From the NCBI GenBank assembly GCA_017656185.1, contig JACDOK010000001.1:64205-128204 (forward strand): 64,000 bases of DNA. Direction: 5' to 3'. The DNA is from Peptococcaceae bacterium. Lineage in GTDB: Bacteria > Bacillota > Desulfotomaculia > Desulfotomaculales > JACDOK01. Of the stretch, positions 7,290 through 28,848 are shown piece by piece. Position 1 is the stretch's first letter. Each line of letters starts with the position of its first letter. Under the pieces are notes generated by a model. That model worked only from the letters and a program-made list of their open reading frames with translations. It was not told the DNA's origin and did no database searches. The translations under genes were made by a program, and so were the position numbers.

Positions 7290-7745
7290 ATGGTTAGTAC
7301 AATCGGTAGTTTTTTTGCCAGCATTACTGCCCGATCCTGGTGGCAAATTGCCCTGGCCACTTTGGGCTGTCTTATGGTAGGAGGCCTCATTATTCTTGGG
7401 CTGCAGTCCTGGCAGGACCCAGATACCATCGCCCGTCACTTCACCGCACACTTGAAAGCGGGTAACGGACGAGCCTGGAACTATCTGGCACCTGCCGCAA
7501 AAGAGACCGTTTCGCCCTTTGACACCACATCGCTTTCCAAGCTCCTGAATACCATCGATAACAGTACCGCCGTTCCATCCCGCTCCACTAATGGATTCTT
7601 TAAACAAACGGTAGATGTGCCGCTTAAGGAGCTGGCAAACCGGTCTCAAAACAACCATGGTGTTCCTGAAAACCGGGTTTTGAGACTCTATTTCACCCGT
7701 ACCCTGGCGGGATGGAAAATATACCATATTGAACAAATCCCCTGA
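7290..7745 (+). CDS. Hypothetical membrane-anchored protein
   Basis: 151-aa ORF with an N-terminal TM segment, directly upstream of the ECF sigma gene. Confidence 0.4.
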   Translation: MVSTIGSFFASITARSWWQIALATLGCLMVGGLIILGLQSWQDPDTIARHFTAHLKAGNGRAWNYLAPAAKETVSPFDTTSLSKLLNTIDNSTAVPSRSTNGFFKQTVDVPLKELANRSQNNHGVPENRVLRLYFTRTLAGWKIYHIEQIP

Positions 7746-7791
7746 CCGTAAAATATGACCCGTCCACCCATTTACCGTTTGAAGAAAGGAA

Positions 7792-8394
7792 TTGTCACAA
7801 CCGGAAAAGAACTACACGGTAGATGGGTGGGTGAAAGCCTTGAGGTACCCCAACAAAAAAGTCGCTCATGACGTGGGTGCGCTGGAAATGCTTTTTAAGC
7901 TTTTCCATAAATCGGTATACCTAACAGCTTATTTTATCACCAAGGACCACAACCTTGCGGAAGACGTCGTGCAGGATACCTTTCTGCGCGCTTACGATAA
8001 ATTGGACCAGCTGCAGGATCATTCCAAGGTAGAAACATGGCTTCACCGCATCGCAAGCAACTTGGCTATTGACGTACTTCGCCGGAACAAGAAACTAGTA
8101 TCAACTCCCCCGGCAGAAACAGATCTTAAAACAGTCGACCCTGCAGCACAACCAGAAAGCAGCCTTTTGGTAAAAGAAGAAAGAGACAATGTAGTATCCG
8201 CTCTTGAGAATCTTCCCCCGGAGTACCAAGAAGTAATACTGCTAAGATACTACCGGGAAATGACCATTAAAGAAATTAGCGCCTTTTTGACCATTCCTGA
8301 AGGAACAGTGAAGACCCGACTGCGAAAAGCCCGTATTTTAATATCCCAGGTGCTGAATCATCCCCGGCAGGGCGCGGCAGAAACGGGGAGGTAG
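7792..8394 (+). CDS. RNA polymerase ECF-type sigma-70 factor
   Basis: Region 2 (DVVQDTFLRAY) and region 4 HTH (MTIKEISAFLTIPEGTVKTRLRKAR). TTG start. Confidence 0.8.
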   Translation: MSQPEKNYTVDGWVKALRYPNKKVAHDVGALEMLFKLFHKSVYLTAYFITKDHNLAEDVVQDTFLRAYDKLDQLQDHSKVETWLHRIASNLAIDVLRRNKKLVSTPPAETDLKTVDPAAQPESSLLVKEERDNVVSALENLPPEYQEVILLRYYREMTIKEISAFLTIPEGTVKTRLRKARILISQVLNHPRQGAAETGR

Positions 8395-8401
8395 GAATAA
8401 T

Positions 8402-9313
8402 ATGCCCAAGTATACCGACGAACAGATCGACAATATAATTCGCGAGATTATTCAGGAACGGATGAAAAACGCCGACCCGCCACCGGCTGAGGAGGCCTGG
8501 CAGCGCTTCCAACAGCGCTTAATGGAGCGCGAAAAGGCCAAGAACCGCATACATCTGGGCCCGTTTCATATGACCAAGAGAGCCCTGGTTGCTTGCATTT
8601 TGTTATTCTTTGCCGCCTCTCTGTCCATCGCCTATCCCGAACGGTTGACAGCAATCGGAAACAGCATCTATTACACCGTACGTACCGTCACCGTTCGCGA
8701 CGATAACACAGTGAATATTGCCATCGGGCGCTACAAAGACAACCCGCCGCCAGGTATTACCGAAAAGATGCGCCAAACTAAACTGCCACCTGCTACCGGC
8801 CATCCGCCGCCACCGCCACCTGATACCGAAAGCGGTTTCACCAGCGGAGTAAGCATAACTTCTACCGGGCCGGAAACGGGGGAAGCGGCTAAAGTGGTGG
8901 AGTTATCTACCCCTTCGCCGCGAAAAGGCCTTTCGCTCGAAGAAGTACGCGCCATAGCCCCCTTCATGGTCCGAGCACCTGGATACGTACCGGCAAGATT
9001 CAAGCTTAAAGATATTACCTACCGTCCCTACAGCGATTTGGCCGGCGAAGTTACTTTTGAATACCGCACTGCCAGCGGCGATCACATTTTGATCAGCCAG
9101 CAATTCGCTACCGGTGACGTCGGCATGGGACTGGGCTTTGACCGGGATGACACGGTAGTAAAAGAGGTAGATATAAAGGGTAATGAGGGGCTATTGCTCG
9201 AGCACAAAGGTGGAAAATACTGCAGTTTGCACTGGTTTGACAACGCCAGCCATTTCCGCGTGAGTGGTCGTCTCAGCCCTGAAGAAATACTCAAAGTAGC
9301 CCGCTCTATGTAG
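8402..9313 (+). CDS. Putative anti-sigma factor / membrane protein with a Pro-rich linker
   Basis: Starts 8 nt after the sigma gene. Has a single TM (ALVACILLFFAASLSIAY), a PPPPPP linker and an extracytoplasmic C-terminal domain (DUF4367-like by eye). Confidence 0.45.
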   Translation: MPKYTDEQIDNIIREIIQERMKNADPPPAEEAWQRFQQRLMEREKAKNRIHLGPFHMTKRALVACILLFFAASLSIAYPERLTAIGNSIYYTVRTVTVRDDNTVNIAIGRYKDNPPPGITEKMRQTKLPPATGHPPPPPPDTESGFTSGVSITSTGPETGEAAKVVELSTPSPRKGLSLEEVRAIAPFMVRAPGYVPARFKLKDITYRPYSDLAGEVTFEYRTASGDHILISQQFATGDVGMGLGFDRDDTVVKEVDIKGNEGLLLEHKGGKYCSLHWFDNASHFRVSGRLSPEEILKVARSM

Positions 9314-9329
9314 GGGGCTGCTCTTTTTA
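9296..9329 (+). terminator. Intrinsic terminator after the sigma/anti-sigma pair
   Basis: GTAGCCC (9296-9302) pairs with GGGCTGC (9315-9321), followed by TCTTTTTAT. Confidence 0.5.
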
Positions 9330-9433
9330 TCCTTAACATAAATTTATCAAAAAATTTTTACAATTGGGCAGGATTTACCACCCAGGTTATCCAAGCATAA
9401 ACTAAGGCAGCAGATTGGGAGTGGGGGGTTAAA

Positions 9434-10033
9434 GTGTTACTGGGCACGCACGCCTTGATTGGCGCGTCAATTTACAGTATTTTACGCCGCTGGCCGTTTG
9501 TTATTGTGGCAGTGGTGGTAATAGCTTCCCATTTTGTCCTGGACTCCATTCCCCATTCCGACCTGTCATCTTTCATAGGACTACCTTCTTATACTTACTG
9601 GAAGATTTACCGCTTAATCATTAATATAGGAACCATCGGCTTCTTAACCTGGCTGACGATACAAACTAACAATTTCAGACCCATTACGTATGGCGTTTTG
9701 GCCACCATACCCGACTTTTTTCTGCATATCCCCTTAGTGGCAAGACTTCACGCCGCCTTCAACAACCAGGTGGACTGGGCCCAGGGACTTTACGCCTACT
9801 TTGGTTCTTCCCGCAGCATCAGCCCCGACACCCCTGCCTACCGGGCCATAGTGCCAGCAAGTCAACTGCAGGAAACCCCTTGGTTCTGGATCGGGCAAAC
9901 CGCCATGCTTCTCTGTGAACTGTCCGTTATTTTAATTGGAATATCCCTTTTGATGAGTTTTTTGGCGTGGTCCAACAAGCACCGTGCCAAGTTCGTTTCC
10001 CGTGCCACTATGGCGCGTTATAAGGAACATTGA
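9434..10033 (+). CDS. Polytopic membrane protein (possibly YdjM/DUF457-like metal-dependent hydrolase)
   Basis: 199 aa with 4-5 TM segments. N-terminal LGTHALIG and His-containing helices. The family assignment is weak. Confidence 0.4.
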   Translation: MLLGTHALIGASIYSILRRWPFVIVAVVVIASHFVLDSIPHSDLSSFIGLPSYTYWKIYRLIINIGTIGFLTWLTIQTNNFRPITYGVLATIPDFFLHIPLVARLHAAFNNQVDWAQGLYAYFGSSRSISPDTPAYRAIVPASQLQETPWFWIGQTAMLLCELSVILIGISLLMSFLAWSNKHRAKFVSRATMARYKEH

Positions 10034-10132
10034 CGAACATTAACGGTCTCAAAACCCCCGGATTAGGTTCTATCTTTGATAAACTATATATAATCATTTA
10101 ACTGGTACGGCTCAGTGCCGGAGGTGAGAACT

Positions 10133-10219
10133 ATGGAGTTTACTGATATCGTTACCACGGTGGCCGTGGCCGCTGTGATATTGTTTATAATCCGGAAAAT
10201 AGCCCGTGGCGGCGGCTGA
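10133..10219 (+). CDS. Candidate 28-aa hydrophobic micropeptide
   Basis: GGAGGTG lies 6 nt before the ATG. Sequence MEFTDIVTTVAVAAVILFIIRKIARGGG has a single TM and a basic tail. Too short for any independent support. Confidence 0.25.
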   Translation: MEFTDIVTTVAVAAVILFIIRKIARGGG

Positions 10220-17295: not shown

Positions 17296-17550
17296 AGTTC
17301 TTTTTACTCCTTTGAAAAACCCCTCTGAAAAAACAATATTAATATAAAGAACACAAAAAGATCAACAGCCCCAAAATGCCATTTTTAGATCTTTATGTTG
17401 CTAAACACAAGACTGGTAATCCTTATAAACAGGCTGTAAAATGCCAAAGATAAATAATGCGCTGCTCCTGCAGTGCTTTTTAGCACTTTTAGCCCCCTTT
17501 TCCTAGGGGCAACATCAAAATACGATAGAATTTGAAATGCACTCTTCCCT

Positions 17551-18328
17551 CTTTCAGTCCCCTATTTATCGGGTCACTAGCTGAAACGGGACGATGGCCT
17601 GCCGGGGCCCCGCCGTTTGGGTACCTTTCAGTCCCCTATTTATCGGGTCATTAGCTGAAACTATGAATGTCCTAATTGTGGCTTTGACAGTCTTGACGTC
17701 TTTCAGTCCCCTATTTATCGGGTCATTAGCTGAAACCGCCCTCTCCACCGACGCAGGCCGCGAGATACTGGAGCCTTTCAGTCCCCTATTTATCGGGTCA
17801 TTAGCTGAAACCACGACCGTAAAAGGTTGAAAAGATGGTATAATGATACTTTCAGTCCCCTATTTATCGGGTCATTAGCTGAAACGTAAAACGGAAGTGC
17901 TTACTTTAGCCAGCGACATGGACTTTCAGTCCCCTATTTATCGGGTCATTAGCTGAAACTAAACCTCCACGCGTGTACAAGTTGAACTTCCTTTCTTTCA
18001 GTCCCCTATTTATCGGGTCATTAGCTGAAACCAAGGTTTGGAAATTGAAATTTGTGGTAGCTGGATTTCTTTCAGTCCCCTATTTATCGGGTCATTAGCT
18101 GAAACCTTGGTTTAGGCGTATTGTGGTTTATTTCAGTAGTGTCTTTCAGTCCCCTATTTATCGGGTCATTAGCTGAAACGGCGATACTCCAGATAAAGTA
18201 CCCGCCGAAATTAAACCTTTCAGTCCCCTATTTATCGGGTCATTAGCTGAAACGAAAAAGAAACAGAAAGAAACAGCTTCAACAATAGATACTTTCAGTC
18301 CCCTATTTATCGGGTCATTAGCTGAAAC
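17551..18328. CRISPR. CRISPR array: 11 repeats of 37 bp and 10 spacers of 35-38 bp
   Basis: Repeat CTTTCAGTCCCCTATTTATCGGGTCATTAGCTGAAAC starts at 17551, 17625, 17700, 17775, 17849, 17923, 17995, 18069, 18143, 18217 and 18292. Only the first copy varies (T>C at 17577). All spacers are unique. The transcribed strand is unresolved (see findings). Confidence 0.97.
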
Positions 18329-19575: not shown

Positions 19576-20145
19576 TTACACATCCCCACAGTAGAGTTTA
19601 AATTCGCACTCCTGGCAGCGACCGGGGCGTCTTCGCAGCATAGGGAAATGTTCACCGGTAACCAGCCGTCTAATCTGAGTAAGCAGCCGCTTTACGTATA
19701 AACGGGCATTGGGCGTAATATCGAGAGCGTATACCTTTTTTGTCATGATCATATAAAGATAACCGCAACGTACGGGCTTTTGATATAGGTCTTCCAGAAG
19801 CATTGCATAGGCTACCAACTGATACTTGTGGTTTAAAGCGGGTTTGCAGGAGGTATATTTGCATTCTACAGGAAAGCAACCCTGTAATGTAACAATATGC
19901 ATATCCAAGACGCCTTCTAATCCCAGACGCTCACTCACCAGGCGGGTACGAAACCGCCGCTCACCTTCCTGTAACTTGTACGACTTTAGGCGGCGCCTTT
20001 TTTCCAAGCGTTCAAACTCAATGTGTTCTTCCTTACCGTGGATCATTTTGCGTGTGATTTTCTTATCCACTGGTATGACGTAGGTAAAGTAGATGATGCG
20101 GGGACAGTAGAGAAACTGTTTAATATCGCTGACTTTGAGCATCAT
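19576..20145 (-). CDS. cas4: CRISPR-associated exonuclease Cas4
   Basis: N-terminal FLYCPRIIYF and C-terminal CQECEFKLYC (the four-Cys Fe-S ligands), with a RecB-type core. Confidence 0.85.
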   Translation of the reverse strand: MMLKVSDIKQFLYCPRIIYFTYVIPVDKKITRKMIHGKEEHIEFERLEKRRRLKSYKLQEGERRFRTRLVSERLGLEGVLDMHIVTLQGCFPVECKYTSCKPALNHKYQLVAYAMLLEDLYQKPVRCGYLYMIMTKKVYALDITPNARLYVKRLLTQIRRLVTGEHFPMLRRRPGRCQECEFKLYCGDV

Positions 20146-23365: not shown

Positions 23366-23971
23366 TCAACCTACCAGAGGCACGACATAATCGCCCACCT
23401 TCAATCGCCTCATACGCGGTAGGATCGGCACAGCAACGATAAGGTAACGACCTGTAGCTGCAATGGGGCGATAGGCAGGCAGTTTAACCAAGTCGGACAC
23501 AGTCACTTGCACAGGTAACACAACGGGCGCGCTGTTAATGGTGTCGGGTTCCACGTCGTCCTCGATGTGGCAAGCGGTGATAACGGCAGCCGCCCGCTTC
23601 TTGCCAATGAGAAACACCTGCCCCACCTGTAACGACGGCACTTCCCCCCACGCGACAAAGCGAAACCGCGAACCGGGCAAGAGGAGTTCCTGTCTGCCAA
23701 ATCGCAATAGCCCTGCCTTCGGATCATCTCCCGCCTTGTAAATCACTTCGGTTGTTCGCACCTCTATGGCCTCGGCGGGCGTGCAATCGAACGGAAACGT
23801 CAATGGTTGATATTCCTCGCGTTTGTCCCGTTGCAGAACTTCCGCATAGGTAATCGCGCTGGCAACCGCCTCTTTTGTAAAGAACTTATGCGTGCGTGCG
23901 CGACTCGCGTAGAACTCACGTACGTTCATCGTGGATGACTCCAGCATGAACTCTACATAAGCGGCTTGCAC
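23366..23971 (-). CDS. cas5: Putative Cas5-family (Csc1-like) RAMP protein
   Basis: GTG at 23971 lies 6 nt after AGGAGG, which overlaps the upstream stop. About 201 aa. Called from its position between the cas7-like gene and cas3'. No strong motif seen by eye. Confidence 0.4.
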   Translation of the reverse strand: MQAAYVEFMLESSTMNVREFYASRARTHKFFTKEAVASAITYAEVLQRDKREEYQPLTFPFDCTPAEAIEVRTTEVIYKAGDDPKAGLLRFGRQELLLPGSRFRFVAWGEVPSLQVGQVFLIGKKRAAAVITACHIEDDVEPDTINSAPVVLPVQVTVSDLVKLPAYRPIAATGRYLIVAVPILPRMRRLKVGDYVVPLVG

Positions 23972-23981
23972 GACGCACCTC

Positions 23982-24818
23982 CTATTCTTCCTGCACTGTT
24001 TCCTTCTGGGCATCAACACTTTGGAATTTCGTTGACAACTGGTTGATGGCTTCAAATAGATCATCGCCCGTCAAAACATCCTCCGCCGTCACACCGACAG
24101 CTGCCTGGGCGAACTCTTCGATCTGCTTAGCCAGGGATTTCTCACTCGAAAGCAACCTGTAAACAGACAGATGTGCAAAACCGTTTGCCATCAGCAGCCA
24201 ATCGGTGGTCGCGTTCCCACGCAGTTTCGAGTAGTTACCGTACCCCAGTCCATCCGCCAACTGGTTACCATGCAGAAATAGCATGAGATCGCGCTGACTA
24301 GGCTTAATGAGCCGCACAATGAAGGGAAATTCCGTGCCAGGCGGAACAATGACCTCCTGAAACGGCGTCGGGTTGGCGTTTGGTTCATCGGGAAGTCGTA
24401 CGCGAAACTTTTCGTCGTACTCATAGGGCTGAACAGAGATGAGGTCTTGCACCTTTAGCCGCGAAAACAGCGACTTGTTATTGTCTGTGCTCAAGCCTCC
24501 TAGCAACCCACATACTTCACACGCAACGCAAGGCTTGTCTACAGTGCAGTTATTCACGTTGAGTTTTGCCAACAGGACGCGACGCAACACGCCATTGTAT
24601 TTGCGCGCCAGCCACCAGTACCGTTCCTTGCCCGCGAACTCCACCTTCGCCGTCTCGCGTAACGTGCCAATGCCTTCGCTCGACACAAACAGTGCTTCGC
24701 TTTCCAGTCGCTTGATACCCACCAACGTCAAGACTCCCTCACGCATGAGGTTGATGCGCGTGGCGTCGAAGGCCTCTGGTACGCCCCACTTTACAGGCAA
24801 CCGGTCAATGAAATTCAT
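23982..24818 (-). CDS. cas7: Putative Cas7-family backbone protein (Csc2-like / type III-like RAMP)
   Basis: 278 aa. ATGA start/stop overlap with the upstream gene. CVACEVCGLLGG resembles the CxxCxxFG-type loop of Csm3/Cmr4-like Cas7 proteins. Confidence 0.5.
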   Translation of the reverse strand: MNFIDRLPVKWGVPEAFDATRINLMREGVLTLVGIKRLESEALFVSSEGIGTLRETAKVEFAGKERYWWLARKYNGVLRRVLLAKLNVNNCTVDKPCVACEVCGLLGGLSTDNNKSLFSRLKVQDLISVQPYEYDEKFRVRLPDEPNANPTPFQEVIVPPGTEFPFIVRLIKPSQRDLMLFLHGNQLADGLGYGNYSKLRGNATTDWLLMANGFAHLSVYRLLSSEKSLAKQIEEFAQAAVGVTAEDVLTGDDLFEAINQLSTKFQSVDAQKETVQEE

Positions 24819-27415
24819 TCTGACTCGCCTCCTTTGTAGTGGTTATAGTAGAACAGCAAATAGAGGTCCATATCGGCAATGGTGCGCGAGAAGTCCCCCA
24901 AAGGACAGCCTTCCCTCTCGCAAGTGGAGATAATCTCTTCCACAAGCTCAAGCACCTGCTTAACCAACTCTTGGTTCGCTCCGCGTTCATGTTCACGACG
25001 ATAGGCATTAAGCAAGCGAGTACCCCATGATCGCGCTGAATCGGCATCGCGCACCATTTTGATGCTTTGGATCCACTTAACCAGCTCGACGCCTGTATAC
25101 TGCTCCTGCTGCGTCTTCCAAAAACCCTTGGCACGAGGACACCATCCGTTCTCAACCAACAACCTTACAATCTTTAACCCCAACTGAAACTTCCAATCGC
25201 CCTGGGTAGCGATTTGCTCCGCCACGTCAATCACCTCCTTCACTTTGTCCGCTCCTGGTGAGAAGCTGTCCCGATGTTTCTTGCGCCATATCAAAGTGAC
25301 TGCGCGACGCGGGTTGTTCAGCAACTCAAGGAACAATCCTTGATTGAGCACGTAACTTTTCTTCGTCTTGCGTCTATTAGCGTCAGCTATACGGTAAGCG
25401 AGCGACGCGCGGCGCATTTCGTCCAACGTAACTTCTTCGCCGAACACTGAAAATTGATAATCAGTGGGCGTGACGTAATGAAGAGAGCCTCCCGTCAGGC
25501 GATAGAAGTCATACATCGTCGCTTTGATGAGTTCACGTTTAACGGCGCCACTTATGCCTTCTTCGCCTACCAATCGTTCGACAGGTATGCGCACCCCCAC
25601 GATGCTGCTAATGCGGTTCAGCGTCGGTAACGCAAAGCCTTTCAGTTGCGATAATCGCTTTCTGCTCCGCCCATAGACAGACAGCATATCAGCACCGATG
25701 TCCTCACCAATAAGAGCTTGTAGACCTGTCAGTTCCGCTGTGACAGAAGTCATCTCACTGTCTTGCTCTGATATCTCTGTCGCCTCGTGGCTTTCCTCTT
25801 CGATTTCCTCTACCGTTGCCGCGTGTGCAACGACATCAATCAACTTTTGCAGTCGCTCTTTAGCGAGCGGGCTATTGATGAGCAAATATTCACGCTGTTT
25901 GTTGACGCTCTGTCCTCTTGGTTTCGTAACCCTGGCGATAGGTAGGTCCATATAACCTGCTGTGAAACACCATTGGCAAACACGAATCATAGAGTGAGTT
26001 TTACGGTGAGTTTGGAACACACTGTCCGTCTTTGGGCTGCCCGTGATAAGACCCTGCCCTTGTATCTGCTGCGGGAAACAACGACAGATAGGACAAAGAG
26101 ATTTATTACGTAGGCTACGTCGTCCCGTGACGTGCGAACCGTTCAGCAAAGCAAACTCAGCAACCTGTAAGTTGTAAACACCACTTTGAACGTCCTCTTC
26201 CATACGTCGCAACTCCAAAACGACGTTTGTCAGCGAACGGTAACCATTCGATGAATAATCGAATAACTTGAGCAGTTCTTGCAAATCTTTCTGCGTTTTC
26301 CTGTCGAGTTCCTTTGGCGCTTTCAGGTACTCTGCCAATTTCTCCCCACGCTGAATACCTGCTGGCACGACATGGGTGGGTAACTTCAGGGACCTTCCTT
26401 GAGACGCAACCTTCTCACGCACCTTTTGCCAGAGAGACTTAATACCGTTCTCTAAACCATCCCTAAAGATTTCGGCCGCTTGTTCAATCGTATCCGACAA
26501 ATCATATCGTTCCAGTATCTCTCGAATACTTCTGCGACCGTAAAGTGCAGTGGCTAACTTGATAGCGATGGCTTCGTTGACAAGGAGATACTTCACGCTG
26601 GAAACCTCTAGTTCAGGCGGCAGTCCTGACAATATCGTGTCGAAGATTTTCTCATTAAACAATGCCTCATAGAGCATCTTAGGATTGACCGTCAGCCCTG
26701 TCAGCGCTTCCCGCACTTGCGATTCGTCGCCAACCACCCACAAAGTTCCGCGCTTTTGAAGAAGGATATCTAGGCCCCGTTCTATCAGTTCGGGTGCGAG
26801 TTGCTGAAATATCATGTTTGCCAACAGCACGTCCTCAACGGAGTGCGCGGGCAGATCGATGCGATGTATACACCCGCTTAACCCTTCTGTGAAACCCAAG
26901 GAGTGGGTCAATTCCATGTTTATTTGTGTATAAGGGTTTGATGCCAGCAGCAATTGGATGTTGCCGACGAATCCCCTTTCTAGGCAAGAGGCAATGACAT
27001 CCGCAATAGATACCAGAATCGCCGCCTTATACTCGACTAACAGCGATGGGCAGCAAGAATGATGTTCCTCTGCGATCTTCAGGAGGATACGCCTATCTGC
27101 ATCTAGGTTGATGCCATTGTCTTGCAGCAACATACGAAATCGTTGATCATCAAGCAAATCATCGAGATACTTTGACGAGTAGGAGCTATGGACCCACTGG
27201 TCACCTCGGACGTCCTGTTCAATCTTACCGACATCGTGGGTTAGCGCTCCGACACGCACGATATCGGCTTGATCGCCGACCATTTCCATATTCTTTGTAA
27301 TTAGATATTCAGCAACCTGGAACACATCATTGGAGTGCTCGAAGATGCTTAATCGCGGTTGGGTTTTTCCTGTGTAAGTGATGTACTTGTCGTAGGTGGT
27401 AAGTTCATGGGTCAT
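24815..27415 (-). CDS. CRISPR large subunit with an N-terminal Cas3''-type HD nuclease domain (Cas10d-like)
   Basis: 866 aa. HD motifs FEHS...GALTHDVGK...AEEHHSCC. Central CPICRC...CQWC zinc-finger-like pairs. No GGDD cyclase motif. Helical C-terminal region. Confidence 0.6.
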   Translation of the reverse strand: MTHELTTYDKYITYTGKTQPRLSIFEHSNDVFQVAEYLITKNMEMVGDQADIVRVGALTHDVGKIEQDVRGDQWVHSSYSSKYLDDLLDDQRFRMLLQDNGINLDADRRILLKIAEEHHSCCPSLLVEYKAAILVSIADVIASCLERGFVGNIQLLLASNPYTQINMELTHSLGFTEGLSGCIHRIDLPAHSVEDVLLANMIFQQLAPELIERGLDILLQKRGTLWVVGDESQVREALTGLTVNPKMLYEALFNEKIFDTILSGLPPELEVSSVKYLLVNEAIAIKLATALYGRRSIREILERYDLSDTIEQAAEIFRDGLENGIKSLWQKVREKVASQGRSLKLPTHVVPAGIQRGEKLAEYLKAPKELDRKTQKDLQELLKLFDYSSNGYRSLTNVVLELRRMEEDVQSGVYNLQVAEFALLNGSHVTGRRSLRNKSLCPICRCFPQQIQGQGLITGSPKTDSVFQTHRKTHSMIRVCQWCFTAGYMDLPIARVTKPRGQSVNKQREYLLINSPLAKERLQKLIDVVAHAATVEEIEEESHEATEISEQDSEMTSVTAELTGLQALIGEDIGADMLSVYGRSRKRLSQLKGFALPTLNRISSIVGVRIPVERLVGEEGISGAVKRELIKATMYDFYRLTGGSLHYVTPTDYQFSVFGEEVTLDEMRRASLAYRIADANRRKTKKSYVLNQGLFLELLNNPRRAVTLIWRKKHRDSFSPGADKVKEVIDVAEQIATQGDWKFQLGLKIVRLLVENGWCPRAKGFWKTQQEQYTGVELVKWIQSIKMVRDADSARSWGTRLLNAYRREHERGANQELVKQVLELVEEIISTCEREGCPLGDFSRTIADMDLYLLFYYNHYKGGESE

Positions 27416-27433: not shown

Positions 27434-28420
27434 TTATTTAGTAAACCCTATCTCATATCTCCCCATCCCGAACACGGCGCCCTTGCCGACGTGGATGAGC
27501 TCGCCTAAAGCCAATAAAGGTAAGAATTCATCCAAGTTATTGCCACGGTAGGTGACTTCACCCATTAAGCCGCCTAGGTTGACGCGGCCGTCCTGGCGGT
27601 GTGAGTAGCGCGCCCAGTCGACCCACCGGGTATTTTCCTTAACTGTTGTAACCTGTTCTGCCCGCTCGATAAGTCCTTTGTAATCAACCCGGAGTTCACG
27701 TTCGTGATGGAAGTAGCTCAAGGACGAAATGCGGCGCAGCAGCCCGCGGATTAAAACGTGAAACGGTAAGGACCGCACGAAGTGATTGTCGTGTTTGAGC
27801 CGTGTCACGGTCAGCAGGCGAATACTGATCTCATTACGACCTAAGTATTGCGCTTGAGCCCGCTCCCAAACTTTTTCGCCCGCTATCACAATATCAATGT
27901 TTTTCACGATACGGTCCCGGGCGTTATAGATTTCCGTCGCGGTATCTTCTACATCCAGAGCAGAAATACGGGCCAGTTGATAAGGTTTGCGCCCCTTGCC
28001 GATCCCTACCCGGCCCAGTTCTTCGAAGCAAATAATAAAATAAGGTAGATATCTAACGGCCTTGCCGAACAAGGCCAGGCCAAAGGCCAATTCCTCGCCG
28101 GGTGCATACTCGGTCTTCGTCTCTAAGGGTGGTTCTAAAACAAAAGGGCGCGAGATATTTTCCAAATTGCGCAGCACCTGGCTCCCTTCCGGCGGAGAAG
28201 TTTCGAAGATGTATGCATATGGACAGGTCTCCTTTAGGACACATTCCTTACATTCTCCCTGCCGTTGAGCGCAAGCAACCCGCCGGAAGACACGCCCGAA
28301 CCCGCCGCGCAGGGTAGAGCCCTTATAGGGTGGTAAGACGAGGCCCTGCTCTCCGGTACGGATCACGACCTCATACTTGGCAATCCGAAAAGCGGTAAGT
28401 TCTTGAGCAAGTGTGTTCAT
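27434..28420 (-). CDS. cas6: Cas6-family crRNA endoribonuclease (long form with a Cys-rich insert)
   Basis: C-terminal glycine-rich loop HVGKGAVFGMGRYE. N-terminal YKGSTLRGGFG. First gene of the interference operon. Confidence 0.75.
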   Translation of the reverse strand: MNTLAQELTAFRIAKYEVVIRTGEQGLVLPPYKGSTLRGGFGRVFRRVACAQRQGECKECVLKETCPYAYIFETSPPEGSQVLRNLENISRPFVLEPPLETKTEYAPGEELAFGLALFGKAVRYLPYFIICFEELGRVGIGKGRKPYQLARISALDVEDTATEIYNARDRIVKNIDIVIAGEKVWERAQAQYLGRNEISIRLLTVTRLKHDNHFVRSLPFHVLIRGLLRRISSLSYFHHERELRVDYKGLIERAEQVTTVKENTRWVDWARYSHRQDGRVNLGGLMGEVTYRGNNLDEFLPLLALGELIHVGKGAVFGMGRYEIGFTK

Positions 28421-28457
28421 CCCGAAGACCCCTTTTCATCGGGTTAATTATTGTTTC
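28421..28457 (+). repeat. Degenerate CRISPR repeat copy abutting the cas6 start codon
   Basis: CCCGAAGACCCCTTTTCATCGGGTTAATTATTGTTTC matches the array repeat at 22/37 positions ungapped. The core CCCCTTTTCATCGGGT matches CCCCTATTTATCGGGT at 14/16. Its minus-strand complement contains the cas6 RBS (AAGGGG). Confidence 0.55.
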
Positions 28458-28583
28458 TTTTGAACAAAGGCTATTTTCGATACCCAACCGTATTTTTCCT
28501 GCTTTGGCAAAGCATGTGACATTTGTCGTCGAATTTCGACAGCCACTCGAAATAGGAGGTGTGACAGGTCTTACAGTACCACG

Positions 28584-28592
28584 GGGTTTTCT
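28584..28592 (+). promoter_or_regulatory. Extended -10 promoter candidate (TGcTATAAT)
   Basis: TGCTATAAT at 28584-28592, upstream of the small ORF and the khtT-like gene. No good -35 element. Confidence 0.35.
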
Positions 28593-28641
28593 CTGCTATA
28601 ATGGCCGACGGGTGAACCTGAATAGCGGAGGATGTAGTGTA

Positions 28642-28848
28642 ATGCAGTGGGATAAAGAGGCTCAAGCCCGCATTAATAAAGTGCCGTTTTTTGTGCGCAA
28701 GATGGCGAAAATTTTACGGAGCCATTTTCCGACATCATCTTTTTCCACGGGTAGATTTTCCATTCCTGCCTTCTTATTCAAATCTATGCAAGCTTTTCGA
28801 AAAATGTATGATTATTTGCACGAAAGGATAACAGATAGGCGTGTTTAA
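28642..28848 (+). CDS. Small ORF with a PCP_red-like N-terminal motif, possibly degenerate
   Basis: MQWDKEAQARINKVPFFVRKMAK resembles the protochlorophyllide-reductase-57kD-like small-domain motif. The remaining sequence is low quality and does not resemble the family. Confidence 0.25.
   Translation: MQWDKEAQARINKVPFFVRKMAKILRSHFPTSSFSTGRFSIPAFLFKSMQAFRKMYDYLHERITDRRV

Follow-up and report, generated by a model that had tools for sequence, protein, structure and literature searches.

Why does a degenerate copy of a CRISPR repeat lie flush with the start codon of cas6 in a Peptococcaceae (Bacillota) metagenome-assembled genome, 10.1 kb away from the CRISPR array of the same locus? The question has three parts: whether the resemblance to the repeat is more than chance, how a repeat came to be placed in front of cas6, and what it may do there. 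Here we report a computational analysis of this element in its window, the whole 64,000-nt stretch of DNA that was analysed, and in related cas6 loci, which are denoted below by L and a number. The initial annotation of the window had described an ungapped 22/37 match to the array repeat with a 14/16 core, abutting the cas6 ATG, containing an AAGGGG Shine-Dalgarno sequence and lying some 10 kb from the array, and all of these figures were reproduced.

The cas locus and the element upstream of cas6

The cas operon is located on the minus strand with cas6 (27434..28420) as its first gene. The Cas6 protein of 328 aa carries the domains AF_1859_N (PF27225) and CRISPR_Cas6 (PF10040). Its start, the ATG at 28420-28418, was set by alignment of homologues and is secure: 22 homologues start within a few residues of the same ATG, and an in-frame stop lies five codons upstream. 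The large subunit of 866 aa (24815-27415) has an HD domain at its N-terminus as its sole match, and the operon also holds a Cas7b-like protein and a Cas3' helicase, followed by cas1, cas2, cas4 and csa1. A protein of the operon with 201 aa as called (232 aa as an ORF), the presumed Cas5 (23366-23971), has no family match in Pfam, NCBIfam or PADLOC. Among the solved structures none is related to Cas6 or to the large subunit, and none of the subtype models passes its cut-off for this cas locus. With an HD domain on the large subunit and a separate helicase the locus resembles type I-D, and its subtype may be I-D-like or I-B-like.

The CRISPR array (17551..18328, minus strand) consists of 11 repeats of 37 nt, reading GTTTCAGCTAATGACCCGATAAATAGGGGACTGAAAG on the cas strand, with a presumed leader between csa1 and the array. 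A degenerate twelfth, terminal repeat (17486..17522, minus strand; 23/37, and 13.6 bits with the position weight matrix (PWM) described below) follows after a spacer of 28 nt, which is unusually short. On the cas strand this copy has the hairpin CCCC-TAGGAAAA-GGGG and the handle GCTAAAAG. The last regular repeat (17551-17587) has a CACTAG variant. Because this variant repeat and the degenerate copy are found at the cas-distal end, the array fits transcription on the cas strand. A period-74 row of TRF hinted at similar neighbouring spacers and was rejected, the pair being no more alike than other spacer pairs. In Rfam (Rfam 15) the array repeat family has no match even at E <= 5, and the element upstream of cas6 is also unmatched.

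An independent Logan assembly (SRR13776093; L161) is identical to the window through cas6 and its leader, with the same 400 nt at the element. From locus position 20129 (window position 18291) its first repeat is joined straight to the last spacer, i.e. the array is collapsed, which could be an assembler artefact or heterogeneity of the array in the population.

The element, a solitary and degenerate CRISPR repeat (psi-repeat), occupies 28421..28457 on the minus strand. Its plus-strand sequence CCCGAAGACCCCTTTTCATCGGGTTAATTATTGTTTC agrees with the array repeat CTTTCAGTCCCCTATTTATCGGGTCATTAGCTGAAAC at 22/37 positions without gaps, with a core of CCCCTTTTCATCGGGT against CCCCTATTTATCGGGT (14/16), and on the cas6 strand it reads GAAACAATAATTAACCCGATGAAAAGGGGTCTTCGGG, directly followed by the ATG. 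The sole part still matching the repeat is the repeat-type hairpin core CCC-GATGAAAA-GGG(G) at 28429..28443 (minus strand), which has 13/15 identities to that of its own array, or 14/16 with the flanking A. Near identity over the full length was not found: outside the core, 5/13 positions of the 5' part and 3/8 of the tail agree with the array repeat, which is the chance level, and a local alignment comprises 16 matches across 19 nt. The loop end and the 3' arm of the hairpin form the Shine-Dalgarno sequence AAGGGG (28429..28434), read directly 8 nt before the ATG. The tail of 8 nt that completes the element, TCTTCGGG (28421..28428), stands in place of the crRNA 5' handle ACTGAAAG.

The rest of the 222-nt intergenic region (28458..28642), presumably with the cas6 promoter, extends to a divergent plus-strand ORF of 68 aa with a PCP_red domain (PF08369; 28643-28848), which is followed by TrkA_C/KhtT-like and Na+/H+ exchanger genes unrelated to CRISPR. 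A promoter scan of the cas6 strand of the intergenic region returned no sigma-70-like site. Within 480 nt upstream of the element there is no second psi-repeat (PWM maximum 6.3) and no array spacing, comparison with the leader and trailer of the array gave no likeness (scores 17-18 against a shuffle mean of 17), and upstream of cas6 the window contains no array, leader remnant or second copy.

The minimum free energy (MFE) structure predicted for the leader has a different stem, in which CCCGA (28439-28443) would pair with UCGGG (28421-25), with the Shine-Dalgarno sequence in the loop and the stem ending at the AUG; its energy is unremarkable (z 0.27 and -1.3). This stem is an alternative to the repeat-type hairpin and is particular to this locus.

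Recurrence of the element at cas6 starts

The match of 22/37, on which the initial annotation had relied, does not serve as a statistical basis. Under iid and Markov-1 models, a window is expected to contain 1.09 and 1.05 matches of this quality, respectively, when both strands are counted, and one was present in 65% of the simulated windows; the window itself has a single 22/37 match beside a 23/37 match, which is the terminal repeat at 17486-17522. The raw count is thus at chance level and was set aside as evidence. The 14/16 core match is expected 0.033 times per window, a value that applies to a core picked post hoc.

A PWM of 21 columns was derived from array repeats in 17 related loci, the element itself not being used. 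With this matrix the element scores 18.4 bits (P = 3.0e-7 per position), which is expected 0.039 times per window and 1.2e-5 times in the 40 nt before cas6, and all other non-array sites in the window reach at most 13.8 bits. At the first 17 PWM positions, 16 nucleotides of the element equal the family consensus GACCCGATGAAAAGGGG. An Infernal repeat model (cmsearch) places the element at 28429-28457 with 15.8 bits and E = 1.9, a weak hit by itself.

The family has 866 homologues at E<=1e-10. For comparison, 160 loci with Cas6 relatives at 41-60% identity were fetched from genomes and metagenomes; removal of near-duplicates left 136 non-redundant cas6 loci with 3.24 M positions. These loci contain 91 non-array PWM sites of at least 12 bits. 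Nine of these sites, on the sense strand, end at most 40 nt ahead of the cas6 start, where 0.16 would be expected (P 1e-13, and 8e-12 without this window). The pattern is present in the genome set and in the independent metagenome set. Other long ORFs have such sites at a rate of 5/1470, compared to 9/136 at cas6 (Fisher P 2.4e-7), and the enrichment is therefore not a general effect of G-rich ribosome-binding sites. Three of the five sites at other ORFs fall just downstream of cas6; in L084 the site is still part of the cas6 ORF, at its 3' end, with about 40 nt left to the next gene. The covariance model (cmsearch) also finds copies at cas6 starts, in L061 (27.4 bits), L006 and L064, and about 17-19 loci have a copy when those recognised by eye or in a shifted register (L004, L020, L037, L091, L097, L102) are counted. 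Every locus with a recognised copy derives from an uncultivated MAG or a metagenome contig.

The loci with the element make up about 12-14% of the family and are scattered on the Cas6 tree, which makes the element dispensable. Conservation in related loci, the check that the initial annotation had proposed, is of two kinds: the closest known relatives (57-60% Cas6 identity: L001-L003, L002/L026) are without the element, an outcome that the initial annotation had named as counting against its reading, whereas it is strongly enriched across the wider family. The genes next to cas6 differ among the loci that carry it. In L072 (Chloroflexota, 7794-9946) Cas6 comes after type III-like RAMP-superfamily and SAVED-domain genes and before an array, from which it follows that the Cas6 family serves several effector types, and in L084 the element-bearing cas6 adjoins a Csa2-type Cas7. 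Both loci argue that the element tracks cas6, not one effector type.

A resemblance by accident would consist of a G-rich ribosome-binding site with a small complementary C-run upstream of it. This would agree with the expectation of about one 22/37 match per window, with the cmsearch E value of 1.9 and with the Shine-Dalgarno-like look of the G-run of the repeat. It is nevertheless very unlikely, to the point of being scarcely credible, given the low PWM expectations, the enrichment particular to cas6 and the near full-length copies at the same place in L061, L097 and L102. We are confident that the element is real and derived from a repeat. The arrangement is a recurrent one in this Cas6 family and previously undescribed.

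Origin and conservation of the hairpin

In arrays adjoining the cas6 homologues the 3' two-thirds of the repeat are common, (G)ACCCGATGAAnAGGGGAyTGAAAs, and the 5' third is variable. A stem of 3-4 bp is backed by covariation in the array repeats (at pair 17-26, 10 loci have CG and 6 have UA), and the 8 bases 3' of the stem are at the usual position of the Cas6 5' handle. Invariant in the 17 array repeats are G28, G29, A30, T32 and A36. The element has the hairpin of the family, with a C/G stem of 3-4 bp and a GAT-rich loop of 8 nt; 3' of the stem it keeps the invariant T32, and the invariant A30 is replaced by T. Its loop equals the family consensus GATGAAAA and not the GATAAATA of its own array, whose repeat ranks 11th among the 38 family repeats as a match to the element.

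The initial annotation had considered a relic terminal repeat of a lost second array, and relatives with arrays or single repeats at the same junction bear this reading out. In L102 a normal array, oriented like cas6, adjoins this gene on its 5' side, and the slightly degenerate repeat that closes the array stops 19 nt short of the ATG. The cas6 of L097 is preceded by five degenerate repeats, the last of which ends GGGGATGAGCC|ATG. L072 and L106 have the same upstream gene end and junction as L097, but a single repeat. A terminal array repeat beside cas6, in some loci the only copy left, is therefore observed in this series, and it is nearly certain that the element is such a solo terminal repeat. 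The series from L102 through L097 to L072 illustrates how an array adjoining cas6 shrinks to a single repeat or, in the other direction, expands from one. Throughout the family loci arrays very often adjoin cas6 directly, on one side or the other. For the copies of L102, L097, L061, L072 and L037 the repeat of their own array is the best match among the 38 family repeats, and these copies are the young ones.

The units of L097 (about 7372-7791) have a conserved 3' part of 24 nt, comprising hairpin and handle, with 5' halves and spacing that vary. They are unlike the normal product of spacer acquisition, and a canonical array is found downstream at 9304-10172.

The hairpin has been conserved selectively. 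Between loci, the 17-nt cores are 13-16/17 identical with 40-nt upstream flanks at background (17-mer background identity 7.4 +/- 2.0; 99.9th percentile 12), and this excess of the core over the flank includes sister pairs at only 72-73% Cas6 identity. The sister loci L006 and L016 have a common psi-hairpin that is unlike either of their own array repeats. Stem pairs are kept in the psi-repeats with compensation from CG to UA, which is weak and partly circular evidence because detection by PWM favours intact stems. In psi-repeats at cas6 starts the last half of the 5' handle is lost (TCTTCGGG, GTTTTTTC, ATGAGCC and others); the handle is largely intact after the psi-hairpin in L061, L012 and L037, and two-repeat mini-arrays downstream of cas6 in relatives have kept it as ACTGAAA[AG]. 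A lost handle with a kept hairpin is as predicted for a site of Cas6 only, which needs the hairpin, not for an effector guide, whose loading depends on the handle. From these comparisons of sequences, and from the presence of the element at cas6 across effector types, we argue that the hairpin may be kept by selection, and it would probably survive because Cas6 still recognises it in the leader of the cas6 mRNA.

Proposed Cas6 feedback, its alternatives and related systems

Cas6 enzymes cut at the 3' base of the repeat hairpin, leaving the 8-nt handle. By analogy, Cas6 would cut the element between 28429 and 28428. The distance from the stem end to the start codon is 7-8 nt in this window and in L012, L084, L037, L097, L072, L106 and L091, and therefore the cas6 ORF starts at the position of a spacer and the G-run of the stem is the only possible ribosome-binding site. 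As the 3' arm of the hairpin would double as the Shine-Dalgarno sequence, a cut by Cas6 would be expected between this sequence and the AUG. Binding of Cas6 alone would cover the ribosome-binding site, and cleavage would sever it from the start codon. Negative feedback on cas6 translation is therefore the simplest model: pre-crRNA repeats would compete with the cas6 leader for Cas6, and Cas6 synthesis would be matched to the amount of free Cas6.

The spacing is 13-27 nt in L006, L016, L064, L041, L125, L061 and L102, which have a separate ribosome-binding site past the presumed cut, so that no single mechanism applies to all loci; in these loci 5'-end processing may occur instead of repression. 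In L102 and L097 cas6 must be transcribed via the array, as the interval from repeat to ATG is too short for a promoter. L084 (11015-11035) and L102 (2831-2851) have a second repeat-like hairpin where cas6 ends, a short distance ahead of the next gene, and in these two loci cas6 is therefore bracketed by repeat hairpins in the manner of a spacer.

A Cas6 binding or cleavage site that overlaps the ribosome-binding site and gives negative feedback is the reading we put forward for the element, with a confidence close to, and not above, an even balance. Such autoregulation would fit both the selective survival of the hairpin and its recurrence. It implies that the leader is transcribed through the element and that Cas6 binds or cuts it, and these steps, like the direction of the effect, are what we infer from the arrangement. 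Points against a Cas6 site are the other stem in the MFE structure, the promoter scan without a sigma-70-like site, the nearest relatives without the element and its patchiness. Cleavage may fail even with binding because A30 is T and the tail matches the handle at only 3/8 positions. More tentatively, the proposal may be widened to an arrangement, in a widespread Cas6 family, in which the cas6 ORF takes the position of a spacer, with a repeat hairpin fused to its start and in some loci a second one after its end. With the reaction that makes crRNA, Cas6 would cut out or silence the mRNA that encodes it, independently of the effector, across type I and type III systems and coupled to the load of pre-crRNA, as a natural autogenous feedback through mimicry of the repeat.

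The main rival is a decaying relic or recombination scar without a function of its own, left by collapse of an array 5' of cas6, in which only the G-run was kept, co-opted as a Shine-Dalgarno sequence. Arrays directly 5' of cas6 do occur, the junction shared by L097 and L072 records collapse or expansion, the flanks of the element are at chance identity, the nearest relatives are without it and its distribution is patchy, and many single repeat units were judged spurious or remnants by Shmakov et al. (PMC10120712). We consider this rival somewhat unlikely: use as a ribosome-binding site accounts for the GGGG only, not for the CCC arm and the GAT...A loop, and the cores are 13-16/17 identical between loci with randomised flanks. 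The psi-hairpin of L006 and L016 is unlike both own array repeats, and the core of the element is nearer to the family consensus than to its own repeat, which is unexpected under neutral decay of a copy of that repeat.

The analogy of the initial annotation with crRNA-like cas regulators of the CreR/CreA type, where a guide would send the effector to a cas promoter or a complex would assemble on the 5' end of the cas6 mRNA, found no support. Although such mini-CRISPR regulators are widespread in type I systems, including upstream of I-B cas6 (PMC10120712; 10.1101/2023.03.10.532045), and although relatives have two-repeat mini-arrays downstream of cas6 and largely intact handles in L061, L012 and L037, it is quite improbable here. 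The element is a single copy without a second psi-repeat within 480 nt, its handle is reduced to 3/8 with A30 lost, the seeds of the flanking would-be spacers have 3-4 nine-mer matches in the cas locus against about 2.5 expected by chance, and the element tracks cas6 across effector types. A role at the level of DNA, in which the solo repeat is a recombination or integration site for gain, loss or re-seeding of arrays beside cas6, would account for five repeats in L097 and one in L072 and L106 at one junction and for the frequent arrays on either side of cas6; recombination was also proposed for single repeat units (PMC10120712). This role has little to recommend it, as the 15-16 nt of repeat that are kept are too short for homologous recombination or for recognition by Cas1-Cas2, no leader-like sequence lies upstream, the heterogeneous 5' halves of the L097 psi-repeats are unlike products of spacer acquisition, and the fixed spacing to the start codon is left unexplained.

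The feedback reading places the element near several known systems. Cas loci are known to contain single repeat units and mini-arrays, which are conserved in some clades and enriched near cas6 in 27% of I-B loci (PMC10120712). Shmakov et al. 2023 required at least 16 bp of BLASTN match with the repeat for single repeat units, read the near-cas6 elements as two-repeat mini-arrays that target promoters and left the function of single repeat units open (PMC10120712). The element fits the looser category of a single repeat unit, being derived from a repeat, intergenic in a cas locus (in the 222-nt region), outside the array at a distance of 10 kb, and conserved in 9/136 loci against 0.16 expected, with the nearest relatives lacking it. 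It differs in being single and fused to the cas6 start codon, with only the hairpin left and a ribosome-binding site in the 3' arm.

CreR/CreA have two psi-repeats, keep the 5' handle intact and are complementary in part to a PAM-flanked DNA target, through which Cascade acts on transcription (10.1101/2023.03.10.532045; PMC8501985). They share with the element the degenerate repeats in a cas locus, and they autoregulate cas expression and sense the crRNA load, whereas the second psi-repeat, the 5' handle and the promoter target are all missing from the element of the window. Paired repeat-like hairpins with an intact ACTGAAA[AG] handle occur 0-130 nt past the cas6 stop in L004, L005, L012, L014, L015 and L017. 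The hairpins of a pair are separated by 50-110 nt (mostly 50-60) and occur on either strand in the interval that leads from cas6 to the following cas gene; further hits, on the minus strand, are present in L002, L026, L008 and L031. The pairs look like mini-CRISPRs of the CreA/CreR type. Because cas6 and the large-subunit gene overlap, the window has no room for such a mini-array.

Racrs, solitary repeat units of phages that serve as RNA anti-CRISPRs (PMC10651486), are likewise lone repeat hairpins that work through binding of Cas6 or another Cas protein and not by guiding, but they are phage decoys that form aberrant complexes, whereas the element is encoded by the host and belongs, in cis, to the leader of cas6. 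Cas6f/Csy4 hairpins that were engineered into mRNA leaders regulate translation (PMC13478208), which speaks for the feasibility of the proposed feedback. As described there, a Cas6 hairpin beside a ribosome-binding site makes translation or processing dependent on Cas6; these devices are synthetic constructs, whereas the element is natural. In the literature, of which our coverage was incomplete, we found no natural Cas6 hairpin that controls cas6 itself.

Autogenous control by target mimicry is known from the operators of ribosomal proteins and from the thrS leader. In these systems an RNA-binding protein represses its own mRNA via a leader that mimics its substrate and overlaps the ribosome-binding site. 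The element has the same layout, the 3' arm of the target mimic being the Shine-Dalgarno sequence 8 nt before the ATG of cas6 itself, but the protein belongs to another family and for Cas6 the mechanism would follow by inference only. In the known RNA-based self-regulation of CRISPR systems, guide-like RNAs direct the effector to cas promoters (tracr-L, CreR/CreA, mini-arrays). If the proposed feedback is true, a repeat hairpin acting in cis through Cas6 would represent a second, simpler logic, in which the amount of the enzyme is titrated by the enzyme itself against the RNA that it processes. Synthetic biology would gain a precedent from nature for its Cas6/Csy4 leader devices, and such a hairpin would give single repeat units a concrete, testable role.
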